Shown in pieces: positions 42,225-63,991 of a DNA stretch of 64,000 bases (position 1 is its first letter; the number at the start of each line of letters is the position of its first letter). The position numbers were made by a program, and so were the translations under genes. Location: NCBI GenBank assembly GCA_965208155.1, contig OZ242322.1, forward strand, positions 2,175,204 through 2,239,203, written 5' to 3'. The notes beneath the pieces were generated by a model. That model saw only the letters and a list, made by a program, of their open reading frames with translations, had not been told where the DNA came from and did not search any database. This stretch comes from Thermodesulfobacteriota bacterium (lineage in GTDB: Bacteria > Desulfobacterota_D > UBA1144 > Nemesobacterales > Nemesobacteraceae).

Positions 42225-42477
42225 TTCCGTATTTGCTTAAAGCATCGAGTAAAACTAAGGTAGCAGCATAAGATGAGAGATATCCACATGTCAAGCAAAC
42301 GGTCAGAAAAGCCGGATAGTAGACCTTGTCGCTTACGCTTGGAACTTTGATTAGTTCATCCATCAAGGTGTATTTGTCTTTCTTGCATTTTGAGCAAACA
42401 TTGAGTCCGTGCTTGTCAATCCACCTCTTTATCTTTTCTTGGTCCTCTTGCGAGAGTTTTTCCAGCTTTTCAGCCAT
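42181..42477 (-). CDS. Hypothetical small protein with CxxC...CxxC
   Basis: 98 aa (CSKCKK...CLTCGY). First gene of a two-gene minus-strand unit. Confidence 0.3.
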   Translation of the reverse strand: MAEKLEKLSQEDQEKIKRWIDKHGLNVCSKCKKDKYTLMDELIKVPSVSDKVYYPAFLTVCLTCGYLSSYAATLVLLDALSKYGIELISKSEREESNE

Positions 42478-42611
42478 AAAATCTTTCCTCTTGTTTTAAA
42501 TTTGGTTGCGGGGATTATACCCGGCGGACTGGACTTCTTGAGTTTCCGGTGATGCTTCCACTCCCACAATTTTAGCCGGTACAGCCCCGGAAGCAACCTA
42601 AGTCCTTTCTT

Positions 42612-43268: not shown

Positions 43269-43484
43269 GCTCTGGGGGCATGAGAGAAAACAGAGGTGAT
43301 TTTTAGGAGAAAAAACAGACTTTTTACTCGTCGTTTGACAGGGCAATTCTGAACGTGTTAGAGTCTGTTTTGAAGAAGAAAAAAATGGGGTACACGTGTT
43401 CACTTTCCCTCGGAATTGGTGTTCAAATAAATCGTAATACGCACCGGGCATTGATAATAGCTCCGAATAAAGAAAGGATTTGAA

Positions 43485-43556
43485 ATGAAGCTAGTAAAAA
43501 TAAAGTTAAGTAATTTCAGGTGCTATCAATCAGAGACGGAATTTGTATTAGACTGA
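43485..43556 (+). pseudogene. 23-codon N-terminal stub of another AAA_15/OLD/PtuA-type ATPase
   Basis: MKLVKIKLSNFRCYQSETEFVLD* has the same N-terminal signature as the two PtuA-like genes (MKISKLRLKNIKCF...). It is cut off before Walker A. Confidence 0.3.
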
Positions 43557-43649
43557 ACTTCAAGTAGCAAACCCTATTTCAACCGGAACTTTTTCTCCAC
43601 CGACCTGCTCAATGATGTTTTTGGGAAAAAGGAACCGAGAAGTTCAATC

Positions 43650-43697
43650 GTCCGAATTCGTTTGTAATCGCTGTCCGAATTCAGTCGTAATATGCAA
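43650..43697. repeat. Two 23-bp-periodic repeats. The second (43671-43697) is identical to 41688-41714.
   Basis: gtccgaattcgtttgtaat, then ctgtccgaattcagtcgtaatatgcaa. The 27-mer is identical at both loci and followed by unrelated sequence. Confidence 0.8.
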
Positions 43698-43874
43698 GCT
43701 GGCCATATTTAAACTTGACAATCAGCCATCCTCTAATTCAACACTTAACCATTATGTAATTACCTTTTATAAAAGAAGAAATTTAGTAAAACAATTAAAT
43801 GAAATCATTAATCTAACAATTAGTCGAAATATAAAATTGCAATTAGTCGCAAAAATAATTATATTTGATTCGTC

Positions 43875-45121
43875 ATGCTTGAAGCAGATTGTACGCGACA
43901 CGTTGAATCGCGATTGAGAGAGGTCATTAAGGATTCTCCTGTCGTGTTGATTCAGGGCCCCCGCCAGTGCGGAAAAACTACCCTTGCCCGCATGGTGGCA
44001 GGACCGAGGGCTATCACTACATAAGCCTTGATGAAGAGGATGTTCGTGCCGCCGCCGAGGCGGATATTGCGGGATTTGTAAAGACTTTGCCCAAGCGCGT
44101 AATTCTGGATGAGGTACAGAAAGTGCCGGAGATATTCTCATCCATAAAGCTTGCGGTTGACCGCGACCGTGCTCCAGGGCGTTTTATACTGACAGGTTCG
44201 GTAAGCGTGCTGCATGTTCGCGGGATAACAGATTCTCTTGCCGGTCGCATGGATATAATCAGGTTGCATCCTTTTTCACAAAGTGAAATTGAGGGGAACA
44301 CGCCGGGTTTTCCGGAAGCTCTGTTCTCCTCGGAGTTTGATATATGGCAAAGTGGGAGAGATCTGTCGGAGATAATTGTTATGGATAAACTGGCTGCCGG
44401 CGGATACCCGGTTGCCCTTCAGCGCTCTGCGGAGAGGCGTGCCGACTGGTACAGAAAGTATATAGAGGTGCTCGTGGAGCATGATTCTCGTGACATTGCC
44501 GCAATACGTTCATCCGGGATTCTGTCACAGCTGCTTTCCCTTGCTGCCGCTCAGACCGCGAAGCTTCTTAACGTAACCGGTCTTTCCTCTTCTTTTAAAC
44601 TTAGCCGCAATACGATTCATGACTACCTTCTTCTTCTGGAAAAAATGTTTTTGCTTGAACGGCTGCCCGCGTGGCACTGCAATCACCTCAAGCGTCTGGT
44701 CAAGGCTCCTAAACTTCACGTTACGGATACGGGTGTCGCTTGCGCGCTTATGAGGATGAATAGCGCCGCACTCTCGGCGAACAGGCCTTTTTACGGCCAT
44801 CTTCTTGAGACCTGGGTGCTGCAGGAACTGCGTCGCCAGTTAAGCGGACACGCAGAGCCGCATATCTTCTCTCACTATCGGGAAAAGGATGGGGCGGAAG
44901 TCGATATCGTTATAGAACGCGGGGCAACAGCTCTTGCCGGGGTTGAAGTCAAGGCGTCGGCTACTGTGAGAGGTTCGGATTTTCGGGGATTGCGCAAACT
45001 CAGGGCTGCAGCGGGCGATCGTTTTTCCTGCGGAGTCGTGCTTTATAACGGAGAAAGAAGTCTGCGGTTTGGTGCGGGACTCTATGCGGTGCCTCTGCAG
45101 TCACTCTGGGCGACGGAATAA
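43875..45121 (+). pseudogene. DUF4143-type AAA ATPase, frameshifted
   Basis: The Walker A part (MLEADCTRHVESRLREVIKDSPVVLIQGPRQCGKTTLARMVAGPRAITT*) ends at a stop near 44023. The rest (from GYHYISLDEEDV...) continues in another frame to 45121. Confidence 0.6.
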
Positions 45122-45326
45122 GGCAACTAGGGATAGCAGAACGCTTTTCAATGATATTTTCTGGATGTATATCTGGATTGAAAAGATTCTAAAATCATTA
45201 ATTCAAGCTATTTAGGATCAAATATTTAATGCGTTTTCTATTGATTTTCCCTTGACTTTTATTTTACTCTGAAACCTTGACACTCCACTTTTGATGATTA
45301 GTTTGAGGGATGGAGGTACATGCTAG

Positions 45327-46187
45327 ATGCAAACTGCGGTTGCCACATGCGATTCTCTTTCGGTTTTCATGCGGGAGATGGAAAAACATCCGCTTCTCTC
45401 AAAAGAGCAAGAGTACGCGCTTGCAGTGAGATATTACGAAAACAGGGACCTTGAAGCGGCCAACAAGCTTGTGGTGTCAAACCTCCGGTTTGTTATGAAA
45501 ATCGCTTCTGAATACAGATACTACGGTTTTCCGATGATGGACCTTGTTCAGGAAGGTTCAATAGGACTTATGCGTGCCGTGAAGAAATTCAACCCCTACA
45601 AGGGGTACAGGCTCATATCCTACGCGGTGTGGTGGATCAGGGTAAGGATTCAGAACCACATAATGAAGTTCTGGAGTAACGTGAAGATCGGAACAACGCA
45701 GTCCCAGAGAAAGCTTTTCCAGAGAATAGAGGGGGCAAAACGTAAACTCGGGATAACCGCCACCAGCATGGAAGACGACGACATAAGCCGCCTGGCGGAC
45801 CATTTCGGCGTTAAGGAAGAGGAAATCTCCGAGATGCAGGTCCGCGCTTCCAAAAGAGATCTTTCCCTCTCGGAGCGTCCCGCAGGGGATGACTCCTCGG
45901 CCACTTATGGGGAACTGCTTCCCGACCCGTCGGATAACCAGGAGCAGGTGCTCAGTGAACTCGGGTTTGACAGCCTTGCCAGGAAGAATCTGCGCGAGGC
46001 TCTCGAGATGCTTTCAGAGAGACAGAAAAAGGTAATAAACGAGAGGTATTTCACTGAACCTCCAAGAAAACTCCACGAAATAGCCTGCGATCTCGGGGTT
46101 TCCCAGGAGAGGGTAAGGCAGATACAGGCCGAGTCCATAGGGAAACTCAGGGGACACATGGCCGAAAAACTAGAAATTCACCCGTAA
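45327..46187 (+). CDS. rpoH: RNA polymerase sigma-32 (heat-shock sigma factor)
   Basis: Sigma-70 regions 2-4 plus the RpoH box (QRKLFQ). Directly upstream of dnaK. Confidence 0.8.
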   Translation: MQTAVATCDSLSVFMREMEKHPLLSKEQEYALAVRYYENRDLEAANKLVVSNLRFVMKIASEYRYYGFPMMDLVQEGSIGLMRAVKKFNPYKGYRLISYAVWWIRVRIQNHIMKFWSNVKIGTTQSQRKLFQRIEGAKRKLGITATSMEDDDISRLADHFGVKEEEISEMQVRASKRDLSLSERPAGDDSSATYGELLPDPSDNQEQVLSELGFDSLARKNLREALEMLSERQKKVINERYFTEPPRKLHEIACDLGVSQERVRQIQAESIGKLRGHMAEKLEIHP

Positions 46188-46213
46188 CAAGAAGAAAACT
46201 CAGGAGGAATTAA

Positions 46214-48205: not shown

Positions 48206-51200
48206 CTAAGAAGGTGGTTCTAACGATATCCGCCACGTGTTCAGTACTTGGCACTGATGATTCTCGCTTATCCGGTTAGTCAAGTACTCCAGAAGATCTT
48301 CCTGCCTCGGCTGACCGAAAACAAGACGATAAACAGCAAGCATTCTCTTGAGTCGGCGGAAATGCGGTTCTTCTTTGCTGTAGGGAAGAATCGGTACATG
48401 CCGTTCAATACTCGCGCCTTCCTTAAGTTCGTAAAGCCAATACGGGATTAAATCACTCGCCCCGGTTGGACGGTCTTTCTTTGCTAATTCAAACAGGCAA
48501 GACCATGGGTCGCCTTGCCTGTTCCATTTGCCCCTTAAGGCACTCAATCCATACGCCTTGGCTATGTTTTTTCGAACCGCATGTCCCTTGTATCGTTGGA
48601 TTCGTCCTTCCCTTTGCTCTAAATCAACAGGATTGCTCGGCAGGTTCCAGTGAATTACCGAATGACACCAAGTATGGAAATCCAAGCCTTCCTGCCCAAT
48701 GGACGTCGAGGCGAGAACAAACGGTCTGAACGGTGAGTTAAAAGCATCCCGCACGGCGTCAGCCCTAACGACAGCACCTCTGTCGTCTTTCAGTTCACCA
48801 AACCGCAAAGCAAATCGACACCGCGTGTTATAGTCTTTAAGCTCAATCTTCTGTGACTCCGGACGGACAATCACTTCATCTAGCTGTAACCGAGACGTGC
48901 GTATAGAGAGCGAGGAACCTATTGAATCGCCGATGGTTTCAACCCGTTCGGTCTCTGGCTCGTCAATAACGCCAAGAGACTCGACAAGGCAATGCACTTG
49001 TTCATCCAACAATGACTGGATATTTCCTTCAAGGCAATGCTGAAGCGAAAGCCTCCAGTAAGACTCATCTCGTCTGTTTCCTCGAAGAAGTGCAATGCTT
49101 TCCGGAAGATTAAACAAAGTTCGAAAACCTTCAGAAATCCGAACCGCACCACAAAGAAGTTCCGAAGAGTCCAAATTAAGCGAAGGAGATTGTCGCCGAA
49201 GCGCGCGCAAGGCGCAGACACTTGGCGCCGCCACGGCCATCAGGCTTAGAACCTGGAGAAGGTCCGCCGGGGGTCGTCCAAGTGGTGAATCGATAGCGTG
49301 ATCCATGGTCTGGCGAAAAAGTTCCAAATGTTCTCTCAGTCCTTCCACTCTATCACTCGAGTCCTCTTTTGCTATTGAAAACCACCCTTTTTCATCATCA
49401 AGAAGCCAATGCTTTATGTCGGGAAACCTCTTCCCGTCCAGAAGCGCTGGCGCCGCCCAGTACCATCGCTGATCCTCCGGTCCGCTGGCAGGAGCCTCAA
49501 CAAGCAACTGATTAAGTGACGGTCTGATAAGCTCCGCGGCACTATTGAGCAACTCTGCGGCCGAGATAAGCTTATCCTTCTGGTGAGATACAGCGATGAT
49601 CAAAGGGTCTATCAGCATCGCTAGAGCCGGACTCGGGTACATCAAAATCAGCACGGGCATTCCGGTCGGGCGGTTTTCTGAGCCGCGGGAGTATCGAAGA
49701 AGGGGGCGCAGTTCGTCATAGAGCTGATCGTGGGTAATTGGTTTACGTAAACCGGAAAGCATCTTCCGCTCCGCCTCGTACGAGCAGAGAGAAGCTATGG
49801 CGTCAGGAACAACGTTCCACGCGGAGAAGACCAGAGATTTCGTTATGTCAGGTATATCGGCATAAGAGCCACCGGGTCTGCTGTACGGCATAGAGGGCGG
49901 CAGCCAGAGAATTTTCCAGAGTCCCCGATTTATCGTGAGATCGAACAGGTTTCTCATCCTCGGATTGGACGGTGACACTTCCCGATATGATTGAATGTCA
50001 TCCTTGTGTAAAAGATGGTCTGCGTCTGCCCGCAAAGCCTCAATCAGTTCTTCTGGCGCATTCTCACACTGGGCTTCCAGTTTCTGGCGGAATTCATACC
50101 TCCTCAGAAAGTTTATGAGATAGGGGCTTGATTTCCAGTATTCGATGATGTCGCGCGCGCCGACGCTTGACGCGACCCTGTCGGCCAAAACAGCCCCGTG
50201 AATATCCCGTGGTTCCAACGCTACTTCTTGTGGAAATTCTGAGAACATGGCGTCGCGCGAAGGCGTCATGCCCACTCTTTCCGTACGGCACATCACCCTG
50301 ATGAGTTTTGACTGGAGAACATCACGAGCGTTTGATATAGCCGTATCGTCGTCAGATCCGAGAGAATAAAGAGACTGCCTGAATGCTTGGATGTCCCTTT
50401 TGATGCCGTCTATAACCGTCTGGGGATCAACCGACTCGGAATGAGAGAGAAATCCCAATGTCTTCAGAAAGTCTGGGTAATGGTCATCATCCCGTTCATG
50501 GTCAAGAGAAAGCATCTTGTACGGAGTGGCCGACAAAAGCAGCGTTTTGACATTCTCGTATTGAAACAGCTTGTGAGCCAGCCGGTTTTTGTGGTTTTGA
50601 GAGTCTTCTTGATTTTTGGGATCCAGCAGGCTCCTAAACCTCTGAAACTCATCGAGTATGATAAGATCCGGCTCAAGCATATCAATGCTCATCTCGGCAA
50701 GGCGAAACCGCAATTCCGAAACAAGCCAGAGCCGTTCAGGGTCACCCCAAAGAATCCGCCTTCTGGATCGCGCGCAGAAATTCTTAATTTTCTCGTAAAA
50801 CTCCCGGTCCTCGCTTACATTCTTTACGAACTCGTCACGGATATCCTTATCAAGGCTTTCAGGTTTCCATTTGCGTGTCCACCACCACCAGTTTTCATCA
50901 CTCACGCGGCACTGGAGCAGCCGCCTTAAGCCCGCGGGGCTAATATTCAGCCTGCCTTTCAGCAGAAAGTGTATCAGCGCTCGCTCTTTAACCTTTCCAT
51001 CTCTCGATCTGGGATCGAAGCTTGTTCCCGGCGTGAGGCTCACGTAATTTACGCGGTTCTTTCGAATATCGGAGATATCTATTGGGAGAAGGGAAAGACG
51101 TGTAGATCTTTCGAATTTCTGTTCTCCCGAAACATTAAGTCGACGGAGGTTTTGAGACGCGATGCTCATATTCGAGCAGACATAGACAATATCGATCCGA

Positions 51201-51412
51201 CCGACCTTCTTGGCGAGCAAGTGCTCAGTCGCAAGGGCGATAACGCCGCCGGCCACGAGGGTTTTTCCGAGTCCAACCTCATCCGCTACGAGAAAACGAT
51301 CCGTAGTTTCAGGATCTGTATAGAAACGGCGAAACACATATTCGGCGGTCCGCCGCTGAAAGTCCTTAAGTCTTCCGAGGACAAGCTTCGTTTTATGTGA
51401 TTTTCCCGTCAC
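48206..51412 (-). CDS. SNF2-like superfamily-2 helicase (1068 aa)
   Basis: N-terminal motif I DEVGLGKT, DExx box LILDEFQ, and C-terminal motifs V/VI (ASTSIGQEGLDFHTWCHSVIHWNLPSNPVDLEQREGRIQR). Confidence 0.7.
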   Translation of the reverse strand: MTGKSHKTKLVLGRLKDFQRRTAEYVFRRFYTDPETTDRFLVADEVGLGKTLVAGGVIALATEHLLAKKVGRIDIVYVCSNMSIASQNLRRLNVSGEQKFERSTRLSLLPIDISDIRKNRVNYVSLTPGTSFDPRSRDGKVKERALIHFLLKGRLNISPAGLRRLLQCRVSDENWWWWTRKWKPESLDKDIRDEFVKNVSEDREFYEKIKNFCARSRRRILWGDPERLWLVSELRFRLAEMSIDMLEPDLIILDEFQRFRSLLDPKNQEDSQNHKNRLAHKLFQYENVKTLLLSATPYKMLSLDHERDDDHYPDFLKTLGFLSHSESVDPQTVIDGIKRDIQAFRQSLYSLGSDDDTAISNARDVLQSKLIRVMCRTERVGMTPSRDAMFSEFPQEVALEPRDIHGAVLADRVASSVGARDIIEYWKSSPYLINFLRRYEFRQKLEAQCENAPEELIEALRADADHLLHKDDIQSYREVSPSNPRMRNLFDLTINRGLWKILWLPPSMPYSRPGGSYADIPDITKSLVFSAWNVVPDAIASLCSYEAERKMLSGLRKPITHDQLYDELRPLLRYSRGSENRPTGMPVLILMYPSPALAMLIDPLIIAVSHQKDKLISAAELLNSAAELIRPSLNQLLVEAPASGPEDQRWYWAAPALLDGKRFPDIKHWLLDDEKGWFSIAKEDSSDRVEGLREHLELFRQTMDHAIDSPLGRPPADLLQVLSLMAVAAPSVCALRALRRQSPSLNLDSSELLCGAVRISEGFRTLFNLPESIALLRGNRRDESYWRLSLQHCLEGNIQSLLDEQVHCLVESLGVIDEPETERVETIGDSIGSSLSIRTSRLQLDEVIVRPESQKIELKDYNTRCRFALRFGELKDDRGAVVRADAVRDAFNSPFRPFVLASTSIGQEGLDFHTWCHSVIHWNLPSNPVDLEQREGRIQRYKGHAVRKNIAKAYGLSALRGKWNRQGDPWSCLFELAKKDRPTGASDLIPYWLYELKEGASIERHVPILPYSKEEPHFRRLKRMLAVYRLVFGQPRQEDLLEYLTNRISENHQCQVLNTWRISLEPPS

Positions 51413-53223
51413 TTGCCAGCCTCCTCCATGGCGGTTTCAAAGACTTCCCATAATCTCAGGAATTCCGGAGGAACAGAAGACGGTTTTGTCTGGTCGCTCG
51501 TAAGGCGCTTCACAACGGATTTCACCTCTTTTAGCTTATCGGGACCGCGGCTGAAAGCCCTTACGAGTTCCTCGAGTATCGCGGTATCCCCCAAGAAGTC
51601 ATCTGCAAGGGGACCGGTGGTTCCCTTCCTGCTGAAAATATCTCTGCCGCTAAAAAAACCGCCCGCGTATTCACTGAGCAGTAAAAGAACGTAACGGAGA
51701 AAACCCTCTTTGTTTTTCAAAACAAGTCTGAAAATTGCATCATCCCGGTTCTCCGGAAAACCGGTCACCGGAAGGTTAAGCACTATCCGCAAAGATATCT
51801 TCTTGTTGATTCCAGCCACGAATTCAAAGGCGATAAGTCCTGTAACGGATTCTGTGGCGAACCTCTCTAACTCAACAACCTGAGAGCTATTAAACCCGTA
51901 CGCATCTGACGCCCGATCCTCTGATACGGTAATTGGCCAGGCTTTTAGCTGGGATACCCCCGAAAGCACAATTTGCTTAGAGGAGACAAGCGTAAGTCGC
52001 CAAGCATCTGCGTCTGCTTCGCAGACGACCTTTAATTCTGCTGCGACCAACAAGTCTCTTGCCCCTTCAAGCGCTTTTCGCGCACGAGCTTCCTCATTTC
52101 CTGGCGTAGGAGGTTCCTGTGGAACATAGTCTGAGAGAACCGGACCGAGACCCTCTTCGCCTAAAAGAGTTTCAATATCCCCGACGCGGCTTTTTCTTCC
52201 GACAAGTTCCACCAGTATCTCGGTATTGCTTCGCTTTATAAGAGCTGCAGTTGTGGCGTTGGCTGAACCAATATAGAGCCTTGTTCGAAAGCCCTTTTCA
52301 ACCACGTACGCCTTAGCATGAAGACCAAAGGTATCCCGATTGTCCAACTCCTCACCGTCTTCAGTTTCTGCGGCTTCATCAAGTGTGAACCGCTTCCCAG
52401 ATAATTCCAAAGTATCGGGTGCAAGTCGGTTGAATTCTTCAGGTCTGGAGATAATGGTAACCAGATTTTCTGTTTGCTTACTTAGCCATAAAAGAGCAGC
52501 GTCAGTTACAAATGGGGAGATAACAGCCATCTGTCTTGATCGTGGCGGCACCCACTGCTTTCTGGGTGTTCCCATGATATGAAAAGACACCTCCTCGAAT
52601 TCACCGGGCAGTTCCCATACAGTTTTCCTGACTTCTTCCGCAAGTTTTTCGGCCCGCAATTTCGCTGATTCCGATACCTTCTGAGTGGCAATTGACGGTA
52701 AGGATCGCAGAAATTCACCCAATGGCCGATTAGCGGCGATAAATCGTCTGCTCGGTCGTCCATCGAGTTGAAGTGAGATGTCCCATGAGCGGTCATACGT
52801 GATGTTTCGCGACAGGACAAGGAGTCTTATCAAAGGAGGCTCATCAAGCTCAGGCTGAATGAAACGAAGCACCCATATTTTGGGATGGAATACCCCTCCT
52901 CTCGGTGCTTCGACCTGCTCGATCATGGGTTCGAGCAAACCGTAAAGTACTTTGTTTTCAGAGGGAATCTTTATTCCGTTACGATCCACGTAAACACTTA
53001 AACGGCCCGAGAGTCGACGGAGGGATTCAAGAAGCCTTATCGGATCAACCTGATCCGCAGATGGGCCCTGCCCTAAAGCGAGATGCACCGACAGTAAAAG
53101 CAGCGTGTCCGGATCAAGGGAGTAGGTGGTCGCTATCGCCTGGTCAAAAATGTATCCCGGTGGCGGGGTAACGGCCTCCGTGTAAAGGCTTCTGGAGTCA
53201 GGGCTTAGCACCATTTCCTCCAT
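51409..53223 (-). CDS. Phospholipase-D-family nuclease with two HKD motifs
   Basis: HPKIWVLRF near the N-terminus. A central HAKAYVVE...GSANAT (HxK...GSxN). Overlaps the helicase start by 4 nt. Confidence 0.7.
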   Translation of the reverse strand: MEEMVLSPDSRSLYTEAVTPPPGYIFDQAIATTYSLDPDTLLLLSVHLALGQGPSADQVDPIRLLESLRRLSGRLSVYVDRNGIKIPSENKVLYGLLEPMIEQVEAPRGGVFHPKIWVLRFIQPELDEPPLIRLLVLSRNITYDRSWDISLQLDGRPSRRFIAANRPLGEFLRSLPSIATQKVSESAKLRAEKLAEEVRKTVWELPGEFEEVSFHIMGTPRKQWVPPRSRQMAVISPFVTDAALLWLSKQTENLVTIISRPEEFNRLAPDTLELSGKRFTLDEAAETEDGEELDNRDTFGLHAKAYVVEKGFRTRLYIGSANATTAALIKRSNTEILVELVGRKSRVGDIETLLGEEGLGPVLSDYVPQEPPTPGNEEARARKALEGARDLLVAAELKVVCEADADAWRLTLVSSKQIVLSGVSQLKAWPITVSEDRASDAYGFNSSQVVELERFATESVTGLIAFEFVAGINKKISLRIVLNLPVTGFPENRDDAIFRLVLKNKEGFLRYVLLLLSEYAGGFFSGRDIFSRKGTTGPLADDFLGDTAILEELVRAFSRGPDKLKEVKSVVKRLTSDQTKPSSVPPEFLRLWEVFETAMEEAGK

Positions 53224-54415
53224 TTAAGCCCGCGTGGAGATCCGAGAGCAGTGTTTTAACGTTACCCCAGCGGTATTCCATCTGCCTGACTCCTGAATTT
53301 CCTCTCCACTGGTCAAGTGCCCTTTCATTCACAAAGCGGGAACGAACGTTTTTAAGGCGCCGTTCGCGGTTTTCGACAAGCATCCTGCTCTCAGGATCAT
53401 CGGCGACATCACCCTGAGTTTTCAAGACGCGACGACACCAGGCTGAGACAAAATTCATCGCCTGCGAGGTTATAGTATGTCCCTGACCAGAAGTAAGTTC
53501 CCAGAGTCCTCCAAGCGGAAGACCTATGTGCTGGCAGTTTTGCAGATCAACCTTCCACTTATCAAGATTGCCCCGATGCTTATCTTTGAGTTCCCCACGG
53601 TCCGAAAGCTCCGCCAGCATAAGATTATAAAGAAAAGCGGCGCCATGCATTATTACAGAGAAAAACTCCGCGTAGTCCAGCAAGTCCTTTTGGACAGCGG
53701 AAAAGTTATCCCTGTCCGGATGTTCCCACGGAAACTCGCAATCAACAGGCTCGCACTTCTGTGCCAAATGGGTGAGCAAACTCTCTTTATGAGATTCCAA
53801 GAGACGGTCAAGCAAGAAGCTTGCCTCCTCATATTCCAAAGTGAAACTCAAGTTCTGGATGTCATAGGGGAAATTGCTTGGCGGTTCAGGCAGGCGTGGA
53901 TGCCATATACTAGCCTCTGAAAAACCATTTTTCCCTTCTCCACCACTGGCAGAGATCTCAATCCGCTTGTACAGTTTGTCCACGTGGCTTTGATATTCAT
54001 CCTGCGAACACTCGATCCGACGAATGCCCCACACCCCAAGACCGTTCCAGTAGACTGAGCTTGGCAGTCGCTTCACTGCTTTCCCTGCTACTTTTCCGAA
54101 AACACCTGCATGATCAGAACTTTCCAGAAGGGGACCGATCAAAGTCGTCTCCATTTGGCGGGCTTTTATAGCGAAAACTGGTGGGAGCACGCGTTTTTTT
54201 TCGAGTTCTCTATAAACCCAGGGAACAAAAACCATGTACCGAAGACGGGTCTGGATCGTGCTCGTACCGGGAAATAGCCTGTCCGCAAACGAATCCCTGA
54301 TAGCACCCAGTCCAAGTTCCTCTCGACTATCTCTCTCTTGGAAAAGCGCCAAGATGCGAAGAGTCCGCTCCCTAGCGACCGGGTCGTGGTCTATCCATGT
54401 CAATGTGGACGGCAT
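53198..54415 (-). CDS. Hypothetical 405-aa protein, first gene of the PLD/helicase operon
   Basis: Long ORF that overlaps the PLD gene by 26 nt. No family recognised by eye. Confidence 0.4.
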   Translation of the reverse strand: MPSTLTWIDHDPVARERTLRILALFQERDSREELGLGAIRDSFADRLFPGTSTIQTRLRYMVFVPWVYRELEKKRVLPPVFAIKARQMETTLIGPLLESSDHAGVFGKVAGKAVKRLPSSVYWNGLGVWGIRRIECSQDEYQSHVDKLYKRIEISASGGEGKNGFSEASIWHPRLPEPPSNFPYDIQNLSFTLEYEEASFLLDRLLESHKESLLTHLAQKCEPVDCEFPWEHPDRDNFSAVQKDLLDYAEFFSVIMHGAAFLYNLMLAELSDRGELKDKHRGNLDKWKVDLQNCQHIGLPLGGLWELTSGQGHTITSQAMNFVSAWCRRVLKTQGDVADDPESRMLVENRERRLKNVRSRFVNERALDQWRGNSGVRQMEYRWGNVKTLLSDLHAGLNGGNGAKP

Positions 54416-54962: not shown

Positions 54963-57632
54963 ATGGAAGAAGATCCTCAAATATCGGAAGAAGAAGCAGA
55001 AGATCGGGAATGGATCGAATCGCTTGAATACGTGATCGAGAATTCCGGCCGCGAGAGAGCAAGCGACCTGCTTCGGAAGCTCAGAATATACTCCCAGAAA
55101 AAAGGCGTTAAGATCCCCTACGCCGCAAATACCCCTTACGTAAACACCATTTCCCTCGAGGACCAGCCCCTATACCCCGGCAACTACGAAATAGAGCGCA
55201 ACATAAGAAGCATAATAAGGTGGAACGCCATGGCCCTGGTCGTGCGCGCAAACAGGATAAGTGACGGAATCGGCGGACACATTTCCACCTATGCATCAGC
55301 CGCCACGCTCTACGAGATAGGTTTCCACCATTTTTTCAGGGCCGGCGGCGAGAACAGGGAAGGGGACATAATCTACTTCCAGGGCCACGCTTCGCCGGGC
55401 ATATACGCAAGGGCGTTTCTCGAAGGCTCGGTATCTATCGAGCAGATGCGGAATTTCAGAAGGGAGATTGGCGGAGACGGTCTTTCTTCCTACCCCCATC
55501 CCTGGCTCATGCCGGACTTCTGGGAGTTCCCGACGGTCTCAATGGGGCTCTCCCCCATAATGGCGATTTATCAGGCCCGTTTTAACAGGTACCTCGAGGA
55601 CAGGGGCCTCAAGCCCAGGACCGACGCCAAGGTGTGGGCCTTTATAGGGGACGGGGAAACGGACGAGCCCGAAACCCTGGGGGCCATCACCCTTGCGTCA
55701 AGGGAGAAACTCGACAACCTCATATTCGTGATCAACTGCAACCTCCAGCGCCTAGACGGCCCCGTGAGGGGAAACGGCAAGATAATACAGGAGCTTGAGA
55801 GAATCTTCAGGGGGGCCGGGTGGAACGTGATAAAGGTTGTCTGGGGAGGAACTTGGGATCCGATCCTGGCGCAGGATAAAGACGGCTTCCTGGTAGAGAG
55901 GATGGAGGCGGCCCTTGACGGCGATTACCAGAGGTACACCATATCTCCGGGGAAGTACATAAGGGAGCATTTTTTCGGCACCCGCCCGGAAATCTTCGAG
56001 ATGGTCGAGGGGCACTCAGACGAGCAGCTTGAGAAACTCGCAAGAGGAGGCCACGATTCAGAGAAGGTCTATGCCGCCTACAAGGCCGCGGTTGAGAACA
56101 CCGGTTCTCCCACCGTGATTCTCGCAAAGACCATAAAGGGCTACGGCCTCGGGGAGGCGGGGGAGGGCAAGAACATAACCCACCAGCAGAAAAAGTTAAA
56201 CGAAGAGGAGCTAAAGCGTTTCAGGACCCGATTCTACATACCGATTACGGACAAGGAGATCAGAAGAGCTCCCTTCTACAGACCCGCTCCCGACAGCCCC
56301 GAGATGAAATATCTCCGCGAGAGAAGGGAGACCCTAGGCGGACCCATCCCCAAGCGGGTCGTGCGCGCCAAGCCCCTTGAAAAGATTCCGGAGAAAGTGT
56401 TTGAGGATTTCAAAAAGCCCTCGGGTTCCAAGAGAAAAGTGGCAACTACCATGGTAATCGTCCACATGCTCTCAAGACTCATGCGGGACAAGGATATAGG
56501 AGATCTGATAGTCCCAATAGTTCCTGACGAGGCTAGAACTTTCGGGATGGAGGCGCTTTTCAGGCAGGTGGGCATCTACTCAAGCGTGGGACAACTCTAC
56601 GAACCGGTCGACGCGGACACCCTCCTTTACTACAAGGAGGCAAAGGACGGACAGATCCTTGAAGAAGGCATAACCGAGGCGGGCAGCATGTCTTCCTTCA
56701 TCGCAGCCGGCACTGCCTACTCGACCCACGGCATAAACACCATCCCGTTTTTCATTTACTACTCCATGTTCGGGTTTCAGAGGATAGGGGACCTTATCTG
56801 GGCCGCCGCCGACATGAAATGCAGGGGCTTCATGGTGGGGGGCACCGCGGGGCGGACCACCCTTGCGGGCGAGGGTCTTCAGCACCAGGACGGAAACAGC
56901 CATCATTTCGCCTACGCGTATCCCAACCTGCGGGCCTACGACCCGGCTTTTTCCTACGAGATAGCGGTGATAGTCAGGGACGGGATAAAAAGGATGTACC
57001 AGGATGGGGAGGAGATATTTTACTACATAACGGTGATGAACGAGCGCTACGTGCAGCCCGCAATGCCTGAGGGGGTCGAGGAAGGTATAATAAGAGGGAT
57101 GTACAGGTTCGCCCCTTCGCAGATCGAGGACTCGGGGAAAAAGGTCCATCTTTTCGGAAGCGGGGCGATCATGAACGAGATTCTCTGGGCAAAAGAGGTC
57201 CTTGAGAGCGGCTACGGCGTTCCGACCGACGTCTGGAGCGTAACGAGCTACAAGGCGCTTTACGATGACGCAAAGGAGACAGAGAGGTGGAACCGCCTCA
57301 ATCCCGGGGAGAAGAGAAGAAAAAACTACATTTCGGAGTGCATGGAAGGGGAAGACGGGGTATTTATTGCCGCGACTGATTACTTAAAAAGCCTTCCCGA
57401 TTCCGTTTCCGCCCACTTCCCCAAACCTCTTGTTTCCCTGGGAACTGACGGGTTCGGAAGAAGCGACACTCGCGAGGCGCTTCGCGACTTTTTCGAGGTC
57501 GACTACCGCCACATCGCGATCGCGGCCCTTTACGAGCTTTACAGGGAAGGCAGGATCGATGAGAAAACCGTCAATGAGGCGATAAGCGAATTTGGAATTG
57601 ACCGGGGAAAGCCAAGCCCCTCGGTCTCGTGA
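54963..57632 (+). CDS. aceE: Pyruvate dehydrogenase E1 component, homodimeric type
   Basis: Aligns end to end with E. coli AceE (YPGNYEIERNIRSIIRWNAMA..., ThDP-binding region). Start chosen at the internal MEEDPQ by that alignment. Confidence 0.9.
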   Translation: MEEDPQISEEEAEDREWIESLEYVIENSGRERASDLLRKLRIYSQKKGVKIPYAANTPYVNTISLEDQPLYPGNYEIERNIRSIIRWNAMALVVRANRISDGIGGHISTYASAATLYEIGFHHFFRAGGENREGDIIYFQGHASPGIYARAFLEGSVSIEQMRNFRREIGGDGLSSYPHPWLMPDFWEFPTVSMGLSPIMAIYQARFNRYLEDRGLKPRTDAKVWAFIGDGETDEPETLGAITLASREKLDNLIFVINCNLQRLDGPVRGNGKIIQELERIFRGAGWNVIKVVWGGTWDPILAQDKDGFLVERMEAALDGDYQRYTISPGKYIREHFFGTRPEIFEMVEGHSDEQLEKLARGGHDSEKVYAAYKAAVENTGSPTVILAKTIKGYGLGEAGEGKNITHQQKKLNEEELKRFRTRFYIPITDKEIRRAPFYRPAPDSPEMKYLRERRETLGGPIPKRVVRAKPLEKIPEKVFEDFKKPSGSKRKVATTMVIVHMLSRLMRDKDIGDLIVPIVPDEARTFGMEALFRQVGIYSSVGQLYEPVDADTLLYYKEAKDGQILEEGITEAGSMSSFIAAGTAYSTHGINTIPFFIYYSMFGFQRIGDLIWAAADMKCRGFMVGGTAGRTTLAGEGLQHQDGNSHHFAYAYPNLRAYDPAFSYEIAVIVRDGIKRMYQDGEEIFYYITVMNERYVQPAMPEGVEEGIIRGMYRFAPSQIEDSGKKVHLFGSGAIMNEILWAKEVLESGYGVPTDVWSVTSYKALYDDAKETERWNRLNPGEKRRKNYISECMEGEDGVFIAATDYLKSLPDSVSAHFPKPLVSLGTDGFGRSDTREALRDFFEVDYRHIAIAALYELYREGRIDEKTVNEAISEFGIDRGKPSPSVS

Positions 57633-58968: not shown

Positions 58969-60402
58969 ATGGAGAGAATAACAACAGAAGTAGCGGTAAT
59001 AGGAGCGGGCCCGGGGGGATATCCCGCAGCGTTTTCCCTTGCCGACAAGGGAAAGAAAGTCACGCTTATAGATCCTGAGGCAAACCCCGGAGGGGTCTGT
59101 CTCTACAGGGGATGCATACCTTCAAAGGCCCTTCTTCACGCGGCGAGGGTGGCCGAGGAGGCAAGGGATGCCGTGGATTTCGGCCTTAGCTACGGAGAAC
59201 CGCGGATAGACCCCGGGAAGCTTTTTTCATGGAAAGACGAAGTGGTCTCCAAACTTACGGGCGGGCTTCGCACACTTGTGAGGGCAAGGAAGATAAATTA
59301 CGTGCGGGGAAAGGCGTCTTTTACATCTTCGAGCACCCTTTGTGTCGCAACGCCTTCTGGTGAGGAGCGGGAAGTCGTGTTTGAAAACGCCGTTATTTCC
59401 ACGGGTTCTGTTTCGAGGAAAATTCCGGGAGTAGATTTCAGCTCCCCGAACGTGGTTGATTCCGACGGCGCTCTCTCCATGGGGGATATCCCCAAGAGCC
59501 TGCTTGTGGTGGGCGGGGGTTACATAGGCCTTGAGCTTGGAACTTTTTTCTCTTCTCTGGGCACCGAGGTCACGGTTGTTGAGATGCTTCCTGGGATCGT
59601 ACAGGGGGTTGACAGGGACCTTGCGGCGGTGCTTAAAAAGAGGCTTGATCAGAAATTCCGCTCCATAATGCTTAAAACAAAACTGGTTTCTATCAGTGAG
59701 TTAGATAACGAAGTTCAAGTTTCATTTGAAGCCGACAGGAAAAGCTTCCAGGAGAGATACGAAAAGGTTTTGATCTCGGTTGGAAGGGTCCCGTACACAG
59801 AAGGCCTCGGCCTTGAGAGCACCCGGGTCGAGGTGGACGGGAAGGGCTTTATAGAGACGGACTCCCAGAGAAGGACGGCTGATCCGGCGATTTTTGCAAT
59901 CGGGGATGTTGCCGGGGAACCCATGCTTGCCCACAAGGCGACGTATGAAGCCAAGATCGTGGCAGAGGTTATAACCGGGGCCAAAACCCAGTACGACCCA
60001 AGAACCGTTCCGGCGGTAATCTTTACCGATCCTGAAATCGCCTGGTGCGGGGTTACCGAAAGCGAGGCCAGGGAATCGGGAATGGAAGTGGCTGTCTCTA
60101 AGTTTCCGTGGGCGGCTTCGGGTAGGGCCCTTACGCTTAACAGGACCGACGGTTTGACGAAGCTCATAACCCATAAGGGGACTGGGAGGGTTGTCGGTGT
60201 CGGAATTGCCGGACCGCAGGCGGGGGAGTTAATATCAGAATCCGTACTGGCAATTGAAATGGGTGCGACTGCGGAGGATATAGCTTTTTCAATACATCCT
60301 CACCCGACTCTCACCGAGACCATTATGGAAGCGGCAGAAGGCATATACGGAGCAAGCACCCACATTATGAAGAGACGTCCGAGAAAAACTTCACGGAAGT
60401 GA
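58969..60402 (+). CDS. lpd: Dihydrolipoyl dehydrogenase (E3)
   Basis: FAD motif GAGPGG, redox-active disulfide GGVCLYRGCIPSK, NAD motif GGGYIGLE, and the C-terminal HPHPTLTE. Confidence 0.9.
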   Translation: MERITTEVAVIGAGPGGYPAAFSLADKGKKVTLIDPEANPGGVCLYRGCIPSKALLHAARVAEEARDAVDFGLSYGEPRIDPGKLFSWKDEVVSKLTGGLRTLVRARKINYVRGKASFTSSSTLCVATPSGEEREVVFENAVISTGSVSRKIPGVDFSSPNVVDSDGALSMGDIPKSLLVVGGGYIGLELGTFFSSLGTEVTVVEMLPGIVQGVDRDLAAVLKKRLDQKFRSIMLKTKLVSISELDNEVQVSFEADRKSFQERYEKVLISVGRVPYTEGLGLESTRVEVDGKGFIETDSQRRTADPAIFAIGDVAGEPMLAHKATYEAKIVAEVITGAKTQYDPRTVPAVIFTDPEIAWCGVTESEARESGMEVAVSKFPWAASGRALTLNRTDGLTKLITHKGTGRVVGVGIAGPQAGELISESVLAIEMGATAEDIAFSIHPHPTLTETIMEAAEGIYGASTHIMKRRPRKTSRK

Positions 60403-60555
60403 CGGAGTAAAATCTGGAGCGTGGTCTAAGTCGACCAAAGGAGAAGAGGTTCCTTCTTTGTTGCAGCACTTGGAGAAGTGTGGTTTGATTCGGTATCTTG
60501 AGGGAAGAGAGATTGCTCTTACCGTAAATGGATACTCTCATACTGGAGAGAACTG

Positions 60556-61272
60556 ATGGGTTCATCTAAAAAAAAGCTTTTTCTCATACCCTGCTGCTCA
60601 ACTAAGTATTGTGGTGGAGATTCCTGGGCTCCCACGCCGGAACCGCTGACAGCTCTAGTTTCGGAGAAGACTTACTCCGCTATTTTGGAAACCAGAAGGC
60701 AGGTGCTGTCGGATATTCTCCAAGACAAGAAATACACCTCCAAAGAATACGAAAAAAACGGAAGTTTGGAACCGGGGTCGGATTTCGGCGGACAGAGCGC
60801 ATCGGGACTATACCTTCCAGCAGTGCAAAGATATAAAGGGACTCTGTACTCAAAAACCCCCACTCTCTCATCACGTAGCAACTGGGACGACCAGATTCTC
60901 ATCCTGTCGGCACTCTACGGGCCGCTGCACCCCCTCAGTCGCGTTCAGGATTACAATCTTCAGATGAGCGATAGGCCCGCTTACAAAACATGGAAAAAAC
61001 GCCTTCCCCAGTTTCTTCGAAACTATGCCCTTTTAAACGACATTCAGGAGATTCATCTCTTTTTCGGCAGTAGCACACACTATCTGAAAGTGGCTAAAGC
61101 CGCTGTGGAACCCCTGTTGAAAGAGAAACTGATTAAAAAAGCGGTTCAGTATCACGTCATTGACGGCAATACGAGGCTGACGCCGCAGACGCACGGCGAA
61201 CTGTTGGAAAACTGTCTGAAACGAGGAAACATAAATAAACTTCCCAAGAACATTAAGGAGCGTACCTTATGA
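60556..61272 (+). CDS. YaaA/DUF328-like protein (divergent)
   Basis: By-eye alignment to E. coli YaaA: LFLIPCCSTK ~ LILISPAKTL, AVQRYKGTLY ~ AFKGDVYTGL, SALYGPLHPLSRVQDYNLQM ~ [20 protein letters not shown]. Confidence 0.45.
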   Translation: MGSSKKKLFLIPCCSTKYCGGDSWAPTPEPLTALVSEKTYSAILETRRQVLSDILQDKKYTSKEYEKNGSLEPGSDFGGQSASGLYLPAVQRYKGTLYSKTPTLSSRSNWDDQILILSALYGPLHPLSRVQDYNLQMSDRPAYKTWKKRLPQFLRNYALLNDIQEIHLFFGSSTHYLKVAKAAVEPLLKEKLIKKAVQYHVIDGNTRLTPQTHGELLENCLKRGNINKLPKNIKERTL

Positions 61273-61898
61273 GTGACGCATGCCGATTTATACATGATCT
61301 TGCGGGGCATTTCGACAGGCATGAATTTCCTTTCGAACCTGAACTGATTCCTGAAAGCGGAATCTATCTGCTTTTCGAGGCGGGGGAAACCGCCCACGGA
61401 ACCGAGCGAATCGTTCATGTCGGAACGCATACGGGAAATCGGCGGCTCATGTCAAGGCTTCAGGAACACGACAGTTCCAACAAGGACCGGAGCATATTAA
61501 GAAAGAATGTTGGCCGAGCGCTTTTGCGCAAAAGCGGGGACCCCTTTCTGGAGAAATGGAATATTGATCTCACCTCAAGGGAAAAGAGAGAGAAATACGA
61601 GCCGCTCGTTGACTTCGAACGACAAGGTGACGTCGAGGCTGCGGTGACGGACAGAATTCGGCGAAATTTTTCCTTTGTCGCATTGCCCGTGGAAGACAAG
61701 AAATCACGGTCCGAGCTTAAACTGAAGATTATATCCACCTTGTCTCTTTGCGGTTGCTGTCGGCCGTCAGAGCAATGGCTGGGCCTGTGGTCTTCCAAGA
61801 GCAAAATTCGAGAAAGCGGACTTTGGCTTGAACAAGGGCTGTACAAGGAACCGCTGTCAGCGGATGAAATCAGCGCATTGCGGGCAATCGCGTCGTGA
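61269..61898 (+). CDS. GIY-YIG nuclease-domain protein
   Basis: GIYLLFEAGETAHGTERIVHVGTHTGNRRLMSRLQEH fits GIY-(10-12)-YVG-...-R..H. Overlaps the YaaA-like gene by 4 nt. Confidence 0.5.
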   Translation: MSDACRFIHDLAGHFDRHEFPFEPELIPESGIYLLFEAGETAHGTERIVHVGTHTGNRRLMSRLQEHDSSNKDRSILRKNVGRALLRKSGDPFLEKWNIDLTSREKREKYEPLVDFERQGDVEAAVTDRIRRNFSFVALPVEDKKSRSELKLKIISTLSLCGCCRPSEQWLGLWSSKSKIRESGLWLEQGLYKEPLSADEISALRAIAS

Positions 61899-62201
61899 AT
61901 GACTCGTGGCGGTGTTCCTCCCCGTTAAATCAAGAGCACTATTTGCTAACCGGATTCATGAAGAAATCCCTCCTCCTAAACTTTCAAGATGTTGCAACAA
62001 GGATCAAGTACAGAACACAGGAATATCTAATCTCGCAAGTGAGAATGACAGGATAATGGGAAGAAAACCAAAAATCATCCCACATATTCCGGGAACGCTT
62101 GAGCAGATAACCGACGCTATCTTCGCGAAGGATAAGGTTGTTAAGAAAAGAAAAACTAAACCGGCGAGTAAAAATACTAGAAACAAAAAAGGTCTGCATC
62201 T

Positions 62202-62435
62202 CTAAAGAAAATTTAAGGAAGGAAAGATTTTCTGTATTAAAAACTGAGCTAACGCAAAAACAAGACCTGTTATAACAGCAAGCACAAACCATCTGGCAAC
62301 TCCTACTTGAGTTTCTAGCTTCGTTAACCGAGCTTCCATTTGAGTGTGAGCTTCCAGTGTCGATAGTCGATGTTCTACATCGCGTTCATACGAACCGCCA
62401 ACTTCAGGAGTATCTGGGGGTGTTATTTCTGTCAT
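62202..62435 (-). CDS. Hypothetical tail-anchored small protein (coiled segment plus C-terminal TM)
   Basis: 77 aa. C-terminal WFVLAVITGLVFALAQFLI. Starts 3 nt after the upstream minus-strand ORF. Confidence 0.3.
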   Translation of the reverse strand: MTEITPPDTPEVGGSYERDVEHRLSTLEAHTQMEARLTKLETQVGVARWFVLAVITGLVFALAQFLIQKIFPSLNFL

Positions 62436-62438
62436 TGT

Positions 62439-62810
62439 TTAAGAATACCGATTGGAACGCAACCATTCCCACAAGCTCCTCGGAGCGAACCCGTGGTAAA
62501 ACCCCTCAACTGGAAACACTACCCCAATTGGTTTATCTACCATGGATCCGTTTAACCCCAACTTAGCCGTCACATCGCTGGCTAAGGAAGTTTTGTCAGA
62601 TACCAGATAAGAAGTCGGACTAATCTTGTAATGTTTTGTTGCGGGATAAAGAGAAGTAATCTTTGTAGCAACTTGAGCGTTTGGTTCTTGAAGGACTACA
62701 ACATATGCAGGCATTCGTCTAGTATCCTCCAGCTGATAGTTGCGTCTATTATATTCCGGTTTCGAAAACAATCGCAAGAAAAACTTTTTAAACTTCTCTT
62801 TGTGTAACAT
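62439..62810 (-). CDS. Hypothetical protein
   Basis: 123-aa ORF in an AT-rich patch. Upstream gene of a two-gene minus-strand unit. Confidence 0.3.
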   Translation of the reverse strand: MLHKEKFKKFFLRLFSKPEYNRRNYQLEDTRRMPAYVVVLQEPNAQVATKITSLYPATKHYKISPTSYLVSDKTSLASDVTAKLGLNGSMVDKPIGVVFPVEGFYHGFAPRSLWEWLRSNRYS

Positions 62811-62894
62811 TGTATAATCCCTTTGTTTTTATTGACAATGTGGGAAGAAGATGTAGAATTCAATCTTCATTTTTAAACCCCGGAGGATTTTATT

Positions 62895-63182
62895 ATGGGC
62901 CTTAGAACGAAATCGGCACAGAAAAAGCATCGCCAGAGCCTGAAAAGGCGAGAGAGAAACAGGTTCGTAACGTCCACTCTTAAAACCAAGCTAAAGCGTT
63001 ACTCAGAAGCTATTGGAAGCGAGGATCTCGAGAAATCGCAGACTCTCCTCAAGGAACTGGTTTCCCTTACCGATAAGGCCGCCACTAAAGGGGTTATCCA
63101 CAAGAAAAAAGCCTCAAGGTACGTATCGAGGTTTTCAAAAAAGCTCTCGGACTTAAGCAGTTCCCAGACTGCCGGTTCCTAG
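62895..63182 (+). CDS. rpsT: 30S ribosomal protein S20
   Basis: AATKGVIHKKKASRYVSRF aligns with E. coli S20 AAKGLIHKNKAARHKANL. Basic N-terminus. Confidence 0.85.
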   Translation: MGLRTKSAQKKHRQSLKRRERNRFVTSTLKTKLKRYSEAIGSEDLEKSQTLLKELVSLTDKAATKGVIHKKKASRYVSRFSKKLSDLSSSQTAGS

Positions 63183-63991
63183 GTCTTCTGAGAGCATATC
63201 CCAAGAAGAAGTTTCTCAAGAAGTATGTAGTTGTCCCCGGAACTGTTTTTGATTCCGAAGTCCGTTTCCTCTATAAGACCCAGTATTCTGCCGAGATCGT
63301 TTTCCCTGAAGTTGCGCACGCTTTTTTTAAGGTAAAAGACGGCCCCTCGGGATGTTTTTACGGCCTTCGCGATGGCTTCATCCGATTTTCCTTCCCGAAG
63401 ATGCTGCGAGACCTTGAATATCTGGCGGAATCTCCAGGCTATCATGTAAAGTATGGAGAGAGGGTCCTCCCTGTTTCTCTCAAGCTCCCGCAGTATCCTG
63501 AGAGAACCCCGGAGATCCCTGTTTGAAAGCGCGGTCGAGAGGGAAAACACGTTCTCGGTGCTGCGTTTCTCGATAAGCCCCCTTAACTCCTTCTCGCCTA
63601 CGGGTTTTCCCCCGTCAACGTAAAGGGATATCTTCCCAAGCTCGTTTTTGACAAGGTTCATGTCCTCGCCGAGCATGGTTTTTACGAAACCCACAGCCCC
63701 GGGAGTAAGGGATATACCGAGTCTTTCCCCAAGGCGTCTTATTTCCTGCTCGGGCTTGCTCCCGCGGTCAAGATCGACAAGCTTTATGCCTCTTGCAGGC
63801 TTTGTCTTGCCCTTCCGGGATCCCCCGGAGAGCAGTACCAGCATGGAGGAAGAGGCCGGGGCCCCGGCGTATTTGTTAAGCAACTCAAGATCGTCTTTTT
63901 TAAGGCCGTCATATCCCTTTGCCACGATTAGCTTTTTCTCGTGAAACATTGGGAGGGTCCTTGCGTCCTCGACTACTTCCTGAAGGGACAT
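63179..63991 (-). CDS. holA: DNA polymerase III delta subunit, cut by the window end
   Basis: C-terminal 270 aa of a HolA-like clamp-loader delta (KKLIVAKGY...LLSGG...). The ORF runs off the window. Divergent from rpsT as in many genomes. Confidence 0.7.
   Translation of the reverse strand: MSLQEVVEDARTLPMFHEKKLIVAKGYDGLKKDDLELLNKYAGAPASSSMLVLLSGGSRKGKTKPARGIKLVDLDRGSKPEQEIRRLGERLGISLTPGAVGFVKTMLGEDMNLVKNELGKISLYVDGGKPVGEKELRGLIEKRSTENVFSLSTALSNRDLRGSLRILRELERNREDPLSILYMIAWRFRQIFKVSQHLREGKSDEAIAKAVKTSRGAVFYLKKSVRNFRENDLGRILGLIEETDFGIKNSSGDNYILLEKLLLGICSQKT

Follow-up and report, generated by a model that had tools for sequence, protein, structure and literature searches.

We analyzed a pair of overlapping genes, here called A and B, within a 64,000-nucleotide (nt) stretch of contig OZ242322.1 from a Thermodesulfobacteriota bacterium (assembly GCA_965208155.1); this whole stretch is hereafter the window, and coordinates refer to it. 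The pair is flanked by lpd (58969-60402) and rpsT (62895-63182), with small open reading frames (ORFs) also located in this interval. An initial annotation, made from the DNA letters alone, had described two ORFs overlapping by 4 nt between lpd and rpsT, and both points hold: the overlap is an ATGA start/stop junction, and each ORF has its own Shine-Dalgarno site.

60556..61272, plus strand: gene A, ATG start, 238 amino acids (aa); the "long" form of the DUF6884-type partner, with a predicted YaaA/DUF328 fold.
61269..61898, plus strand: gene B, ATG start, 209 aa; GIY_YIG_3 (PF26468), with a match to PADLOC PDC-M57B.
61269..61272, plus strand: ATGA start/stop overlap of A and B, 4 nt; translational coupling.
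60545..60550, plus strand: Shine-Dalgarno-like GGAGAG for A, 5 nt 5' of its ATG; read from the sequence.
61255..61260, plus strand: Shine-Dalgarno AAGGAG for B, within the 3' end of A; read from the sequence.

Both are genuine genes and not chance ORFs, since each has many homologues at E < 1e-50 (the best reaching E 1e-100 and better), and the pairwise ratio of non-synonymous to synonymous substitution rates (dN/dS) within the closest clade is 0.13-0.35 for A and B alike. The pair had also been placed in an AT-rich patch, which proved correct for the interval 3' of B (61899-62894, GC 0.31-0.42), the only clearly AT-rich part, and incorrect for the genes themselves: A and B have GC contents of 0.477 and 0.513, i.e., at the window mean (0.502, standard deviation 0.049), and 15% of segments of the same size elsewhere have a lower GC than the whole lpd-rpsT patch. 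No sigma-70-like promoter or plus-strand terminator was found bracketing the pair, and no Rfam family matched positions 60200-63300.

Protein A passes the Pfam threshold for YaaA/DUF328 (PF03883; 41.3 bits against a cut-off of 29.6, residues 38-182), consistent with the divergent YaaA-family protein that had been proposed at this position. Its score for Pfam DUF6884 (PF21818) is below the gathering threshold (26.0 bits against 30), and PF21818.4 is listed in the precomputed annotation of an identical protein (P0121). A displays the "cantaloupe" alpha/beta fold of the YaaA structure 5CAJ, along with an extra helical region that is present in YaaA too and missing from short DUF6884 proteins. Two motifs stand out in A.

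60592..60606, plus strand: CxxxK motif, C13-C14-S15-T16-K17; C13 and K17 invariant in a 55-sequence alignment.
60904..60921, plus strand: LSAxxG motif, L117-S118-A119-L120-Y121-G122, from the alignment and from a profile comparison with 5CAJ; the YaaA counterpart is LSGLYG.

Across the 55 homologues, C13, K17, L117, S118, and G122 are invariant, and so are the extended motifs P12-C13-(C14)-x-x-K17 and ILSALYGP. At the place of the PCCxxK of A, E. coli YaaA carries an N-terminal SPAK motif. CxxxK and LSAxxG are the motifs of DUF6884, where Pfam curators consider them a possible active site, and YaaA binds duplex DNA via a positively charged cleft (PMC11701544). Scores of A against the NCBIfam YaaA equivalogs (PRK02101.x) are only 12-25 bits (best 25.2) against cut-offs of 204-368, which excludes A as a YaaA orthologue. 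Taken together, the PF03883 match, the equivalog miss, and the CxxxK and LSAxxG motifs indicate that A is a full-length YaaA-fold protein with putative DUF6884-type catalytic residues.

For protein B, the precomputed annotation of an identical protein (P0001) lists PF26468, the Pfam family named GIY_YIG_3, in agreement with the GIY-YIG assignment made at first. A local copy of Pfam without PF26468 gave only a weak match, to DUF123 (E 0.021), a member of the GIY-YIG clan. A Foldseek search with a model of B returned no significant match in the PDB. The UvrC N-terminal domain was among the best structural matches of B, and I-TevI was also a match. Likewise, the B profile yielded noise only against PDB sequences, and its hhalign alignment with the E. 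coli UvrC N-terminus had a sensible register and was not significant (E 0.13). The fold call is backed by the motif pattern, from which B would carry a GIY-YIG-type nuclease domain. Residue conservation was counted over 211 unique sequences, and is compared below with GIY_YIG_2 and with a divergent subfamily of B, here called B'.

61359..61367, plus strand: GIY motif of B, G31-I32-Y33, in strand 1; G in 209/211 and Y in 208/211; aligned with GVY of UvrC.
61455..61469, plus strand: R63-L64-Q65-E66-H67 of B, in helix 1; R63 is the putative catalytic Arg, with H67 four residues on.
61635..61637, plus strand: E123 of B, an invariant Glu (211/211) in the inserted helical region; alternative metal-ligand candidate, kept in B' too.
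61719..61721, plus strand: K151 of B, a Lys where the canonical Glu after strand 3 aligns.
61749..61760, plus strand: CxxC motif of B, C161-G-C-C164; C161 in 206/211 and C164 in 205/211.

The strand that bears the GIY motif spans residues 31-42 in the model. R63 and H67 are both invariant (211/211) and common to B' and GIY_YIG_2, and R63-L64 aligns with an R-L of UvrC. The second-strand YIG tyrosine is absent: position 50 is H in B and, across the family, R in 183 sequences, H in 15, Q in 12, and Y in one, within a strand 2 pattern xVG52 whose G52 is invariant. A helical insertion of ~50-60 residues, rich in invariant positions (NKDRS, RKN, and E123), separates helix 1 from strand 3. In GIY-YIG nucleases, an Arg and a Glu form the conserved catalytic pair (PMC12923530). 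Position 151 of B, which aligns with IERN in B', IEEE in GIY_YIG_2, and LESK in consensus B, is E in 183 sequences, K in 27, and R in one, the K group being essentially the window's clade. Since this clade stays under purifying selection and keeps Y33, R63, H67, and E123 despite K151, two options may be considered from these alignments: either E123 is the true metal ligand in the B family, or canonical cleavage is altered or lost in the window's clade. In addition to C161 and C164, B has a conserved C5 and H9 (each 209/211); B keeps these four residues as a set and B' lacks all of them, and they thus probably make up a structural metal site that is particular to the B subfamily.

The initial annotation knew of no described two-gene system with this composition. 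This needs qualification: we found no paper linking YaaA to GIY-YIG, and the pairing is nevertheless catalogued as a candidate, PDC-M57. The PDC systems were drawn from genes that lie inside BREX, DISARM, and type I restriction-modification (R-M) systems, and PDC-M57 is one of 145 "guilt-by-embedding" defense candidates, corresponding to cassette CAS_00183 and marked "Assign as candidate" (Payne et al. 2024, bioRxiv 10.1101/2024.01.29.577857). Our literature search found no mention of PDC-M57 by name in main texts and no paper testing it, and most "YaaA" text matches in defense papers were apparently an unrelated string, possibly the name of the YADD-to-YAAA mutant of reverse transcriptase. 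B matches the PDC-M57B model (PDLC04713) with an E-value of 1.3e-79 over model positions 1-208 of 211, A has a weak and partial match to the PDC-M57A model (PDLC04712; E 4.3e-4, 18.7 bits, positions 22-106 of 138), and the two genes are adjacent on the same strand, as in PDC-M57. A natural fusion of the two (P0086) matches both models. Because a long A at another locus has no PDC-M57A match in PADLOC, the window pair is probably a PDC-M57 variant that the existing A model misses.

We then evaluated how widely the pairing is conserved. A scan of one genome per species for 185,579 species identified B relatives in 408 stretches. The closest ones are from Thermodesulfobacteriota and Dadabacteria (76-79% identity), and others are found in Methanosarcinales, DPANN archaea, Candidate Phyla Radiation (CPR) bacteria, Planctomycetota, Chloroflexota, Bacteroidota, and further groups. 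Pairing was counted on the best 80 loci with purpose-built hidden Markov models: an A-type ORF is located directly 5' of B on the same strand, or fused to it, in 75 of these, and a divergent DUF6884 partner at one more locus (L052) brings the total with an A-type gene to 76 of 80. Far from being unique to this genome, the pairing is thus co-conserved across bacteria and archaea. The commonest partner of B is the short DUF6884 form of ~140 aa, and the long YaaA-like A is seen in the clade of the window and in a small number of further lineages. Start and stop codons of unfused pairs overlap by 4 nt (n = 32), 8 nt (n = 27), or more (~12), and the two genes are fused at 13 loci. On viral or mobile genetic element contigs, an A-type gene is directly 5' of B or fused to it in 10 of 11 cases.

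A metagenome scan with the A profile detected long A followed by canonical B at 12 loci. At others, long A is paired with B', which lies 3' or 5' of A or is fused to it in either order, and which matches a second PDC-M57B model of PADLOC (PDLC04714, E ~1e-84). Three genes labeled "peroxide stress protein YaaA" in NCBI or UniRef, from Ferrovum myxofaciens, Desulfohalotomaculum tongense, and Massilia sp., are A homologues, and each adjoins a GIY_YIG_3 gene. Fusions of B to a MazG-like domain were also found. A third partner was looked for and rejected, as each family accounts for at most 3 of the 149 neighboring genes and no conserved third gene was found. Overall, the two genes recur side by side with conserved translational coupling, have fused independently, and can exchange both their order and the nuclease subfamily; this combination shows that the YaaA-fold and GIY-YIG proteins function as a single unit.

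Several individual loci illustrate the range of architectures. Five metagenome contigs (L112-L116; e.g., positions 3179-4738 of L113) encode ~520-aa proteins with the PDLC04714 GIY-YIG subfamily at the N-terminus and a long YaaA-like domain at the C-terminus, i.e., the reverse of the domain order in DUF6884-GIY_YIG_3 fusions. At another locus (L117, 3484-5186), an A-like gene is located between a DUF6979 gene and a GIY_YIG_2 (PF20815) nuclease that takes the place of GIY_YIG_3. Finally, a 510-aa protein (L070, 2309-3838) has a Swt1-like HEPN domain fused to the C-terminus of B.

The module is accessory and mobile, and often located in defense loci. In the closest relatives (76-79% identity), the pair occupies different places on the chromosome, and lpd, rpsT, and holA are not nearby. 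The closest member of the window's clade (L140) has it in a defense island with FRG/PDC-S15, Nmad2, two endonucleases, Dcm, Vsr, and HATPase genes, and AccI-like and Eco57I-type R-M genes. In Ferrovum myxofaciens (L146; CP149478.1, 3304-10744), a long-A/GIY_YIG_3 pair is inserted between hsdM and an NTase-HsdS fusion gene. GmrSD adjoins the module at a further locus (L097), and a Logan contig (L081; SRR28149492, 2172-11573) carries a DUF6884 gene followed by a GIY_YIG_3-MazG-like fusion. The Massilia pair is 3' of a phage-type integrase and beside mutS, a uracil-DNA glycosylase (UDG) gene is ~6 kb from the pair in L144, and some other pairs are among housekeeping genes. No match to B came up when 72,556 plasmids and 50,697 phage genomes were searched by tblastn, and B is rare in viral contigs, with 11 loci, where it is accompanied by DUF6884. 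The window has no tRNA genes and no meaningful repeats flank the pair, and therefore an integration scar is not definable.

Around the Ferrovum pair, NTase_sub_bind, DUF4268, and reverse transcriptase genes are located 3', and resolvase and IS66 genes 5'. The Logan contig L081 additionally includes an HsdR_N-like gene, an HNH_2 gene, and an Azaca-like trio 41-46% identical to ZacA, ZacB, and ZacC of the window, and represents a second, independent co-localization of the module with Azaca. Within the window's clade, decayed copies of the pair were identified at about 5240-6645 in metagenome-assembled chromosomes of Thermodesulfobacteriota/Dadabacteria (L003, L005, L006): A is frameshifted in L003 and L005, and in L006 A is truncated and B has two in-frame stops. 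The breaks could be real, making these copies pseudogenes, or could stem from errors in long-read assembly.

The window itself has many defense genes. A complete Azaca system lies on the minus strand (48206-54415), 6 kb from the A-B pair, with the pyruvate dehydrogenase (PDH) operon between the two. A fixed link between the module and Azaca was considered and rejected, as they are co-localized only in the window and in L081.

53198-54415, minus strand: ZacA, E 5.8e-129.
51409-53223, minus strand: ZacB, E 1.1e-170.
48206-51412, minus strand: ZacC, 1128 bits.
34191-35453 and 38768-40123: two Septu-type PtuA ATPases, each followed by a 217-247-aa ORF that is a candidate PtuB.
43967-45121: PDC-S01 candidate, DUF4143/AAA_14.
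45327-46187: MzaA-like ORF.

Azaca is only ~500 nt from aceE, which leaves the PDH operon between two accessory elements. The ORF listed as aceF in this operon has a TTG start and overlaps the end of aceE by 41 nt (57592-57632), and its true start is probably further downstream. The defense-type genes at 34000-46200 are largely inside a low-GC block of the window (GC 0.385-0.44 over 34-44 kb), and a DUF3326 gene and a pyridoxal phosphate-decarboxylase gene are located between the two PtuA ATPases. Directly 3' of B, the AT-rich stretch includes two small minus-strand genes (62202-62810), with a promoter-like site at 62838-62809 and a terminator-like hairpin at 62094-62078 near them. A 77-aa protein encoded there has a C-terminal hydrophobic helix and matches the phage "hemolysin" family phrog_1193 (E 8.5e-6), presumably XhlA-like, and a 123-aa ORF beside the pair has no homologue among 5.8 billion proteins. 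These small genes may be a phage-derived remnant.

Taken together, A and B are co-translated and co-inherited, often fused, and found in defense contexts. With about even confidence, we favor the reading that they form a single PDC-M57-type machine of two subunits that targets DNA, is accessory and horizontally moving, and has defense against phages or other foreign DNA as its likeliest role. A would act as the sensor, inspecting DNA and recognizing a modified, foreign, or damaged base state, perhaps by flipping the base into a pocket lined by the invariant C13, K17, S118, and Y121, and would then position or license B, which would cut the DNA. The module would thereby resemble a modification-dependent restriction enzyme divided over two chains, and would serve defense. 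A defense or DNA-damage module had been suggested at the outset, and of these the context favors defense: Azaca is 6 kb away, relatives reside in defense islands or within the operon of a type I R-M system, and the copies occur patchily, move, and have decayed in some cases. Similar logic is known from two systems discussed below, DpdC (base conversion in DNA) and CMoRE/PD-T4-3 (a nuclease with a modification sensor), which may serve as precedents by analogy.

The mode of action of the window copy may differ, given the Lys (K151) in place of the likely metal-binding Glu. Because of this replacement, it may cut by an altered chemistry, with E123 as the ligand, or act mainly through the chemistry of A, with B as a DNA-binding scaffold. 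As the genes remain under selection in spite of the Glu-to-Lys change, this variant may even use a non-canonical chemistry, e.g., base excision or covalent capture by the Cys/Lys pair of A, with B as a DNA clamp. More tentatively, the YaaA fold (in YaaA, DpdC, DUF6884, and the long form) could be a general device for reading or converting a DNA base, and the module a new two-chain modification- or lesion-dependent restriction system.

Several other functions were considered against this defense reading. The pair could be a compact, horizontally transferred DNA-repair module in which A recognizes a lesion (abasic site, ribonucleotide, or oxidized base) and B incises alongside, which would make it a counterpart, in two proteins, of UvrB-UvrC or of a glycosylase/AP-endonuclease pair. 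YaaA has a name that refers to peroxide stress and is a DNA binder, the DUF6884 protein YfjM of Bacillus subtilis was enriched on abasic and ribonucleotide-containing DNA in pull-downs, and the invariant K17 of CxxxK could be a Schiff-base nucleophile. The proximity of UvrC to B among structural matches, the UDG gene near one pair, and the many genome-reduced DPANN archaea and CPR bacteria among carriers fit such a role as well. However, we consider it unlikely: the distribution is very patchy (408 stretches for 185,579 species' genomes), the chromosomal site varies among close relatives, some copies are decayed, and dN/dS values of 0.2-0.3 are relaxed for a core repair gene. The pair is also found inside a type I R-M operon and defense islands, and B can be fused to HEPN. 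We regard as slightly less probable still an R-M-like or addiction module, in which A would protect the host, either by converting a base of its DNA like DpdC or by restraining B, and B would be a toxic nuclease against unprotected DNA. This would account for A usually being encoded first and coupled to B, so that the protective part is made first, for the invariant, catalytic-looking Cys/Lys pair of A, and for the near-constant presence of an A-type partner with B, when A-type genes can be found in the absence of B; the neighborhood has no conserved separate methyltransferase, and DpdC demonstrates that the DUF328 fold can convert a DNA base within an R-M system. On the other hand, toxin-antitoxin pairs are not usually fused covalently in both orders, B' systems have the opposite gene order, and the 140-aa short form has no evident domain for binding a cofactor or donor. 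A also lacks a PADLOC DpdC match, and no preQ0 or dpdA genes are nearby, dpdA not having been specifically searched for.

It appears very improbable that the pair is a selfish mobile cassette, in which B would be a free-standing homing endonuclease of the GIY-YIG type, spreading by cleavage of unoccupied sites, and A its DNA-binding helper. Although homing endonucleases are common among GIY-YIG enzymes, I-TevI matches B structurally, and the patchy distribution, high identity across phyla (50-57%), variable positions, and decaying copies are what such an element could leave, there is no recurrent insertion target, intron or intein context, or flanking repeat, and both genes are under purifying selection. 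B is also absent from the phage genomes and plasmids searched, and rare in viral contigs. Lastly, A could be a plain YaaA orthologue acting in peroxide or iron stress, and B an unrelated neighbor. The PF03883 match and the several homologues annotated "peroxide stress protein YaaA" would agree with this, but the idea is effectively refuted by the equivalog scores, by the DUF6884-type Cys motif in place of SPAK, by the documented coupling and fusions of A and B, and by the GIY_YIG_3 genes beside the "YaaA" genes of Ferrovum, Desulfohalotomaculum, and Massilia.

The module is one of many candidates, and its appeal is the tie between an unexplained fold and a nuclease. Genomes routinely label YaaA/DUF328 members "peroxide stress protein". 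Here, a YaaA-fold protein has a GIY-YIG-type nuclease as its obligate, often fused partner in bacteria, archaea, CPR, and DPANN, in or near defense loci. This makes the function of the fold directly testable, e.g., by asking which DNA feature would trigger cutting, and if the fold does read bases within a restriction system, the pair would be the first direct experimental handle on its action on DNA. Our results also reveal a systematic class of misannotation, in which the "YaaA" genes of Ferrovum, Massilia, and Desulfohalotomaculum are in fact GIY_YIG_3 partners, and the long-A form of PDC-M57 probably escapes the PADLOC model set. Should the module be a modification-dependent nuclease, it could possibly be used as a reagent, as proposed for CMoRE.

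Compared with known systems, the nearest in logic is CMoRE (PD-T4-3), a modification-dependent restriction system of type IV in which a GIY-YIG nuclease is joined to a modification sensor (PMC12923530; PDB 9u75). In CMoRE, one polypeptide combines a GIYxY-YIG motif with a modification sensor at its C-terminus, whereas B has GIYLL, no conserved YIG tyrosine, and a helical insertion of ~50-60 residues, and its YaaA-fold partner is a separate chain. DpdC, a DUF328/PF03883 protein of the R-M-like Dpd system, turns dPreQ0 in DNA into dADG and does not depend on DpdA or DpdB for this; it shares the YaaA fold and is a precedent for this fold acting on a DNA base in a defense setting. A did not match the PADLOC DpdC models at E ≤ 1, a short fusion form matched one weakly (E 1.2e-4), and the genes flanking the pair include no dpdA, dpdB, or preQ0/queuosine genes, with no search aimed at dpdA/dpdB. 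The N-terminal GIY-YIG domain of UvrC, acting with UvrB, has no sequence-level relationship to B and a partner of a different fold, and the A-B pair is accessory and not universal. E. coli YaaA (DUF328/UPF0246; PDB 5CAJ) is only 19% identical to A, which carries PCCxxK instead of SPAK and has an obligate nuclease partner. DUF6884 proteins (PF21818; e.g., B. subtilis YfjM), the usual partners of GIY_YIG_3, share both motifs with A; A is below their cut-off (26 against 30 bits) and adds the YaaA-like helical region. PDC-M57, itself without a proposed mechanism, has the same architecture as the window pair, an A-type gene of the DUF6884 superfamily followed by a GIY_YIG_3 gene. Overall, the pairing is thus already catalogued (PDC-M57; Pfam DUF6884 and GIY_YIG_3), and the window copy is distinct in having a 238-aa full YaaA-fold partner where the PDC-M57A model describes a short DUF6884 protein of 138 positions, and in carrying K151 in B.

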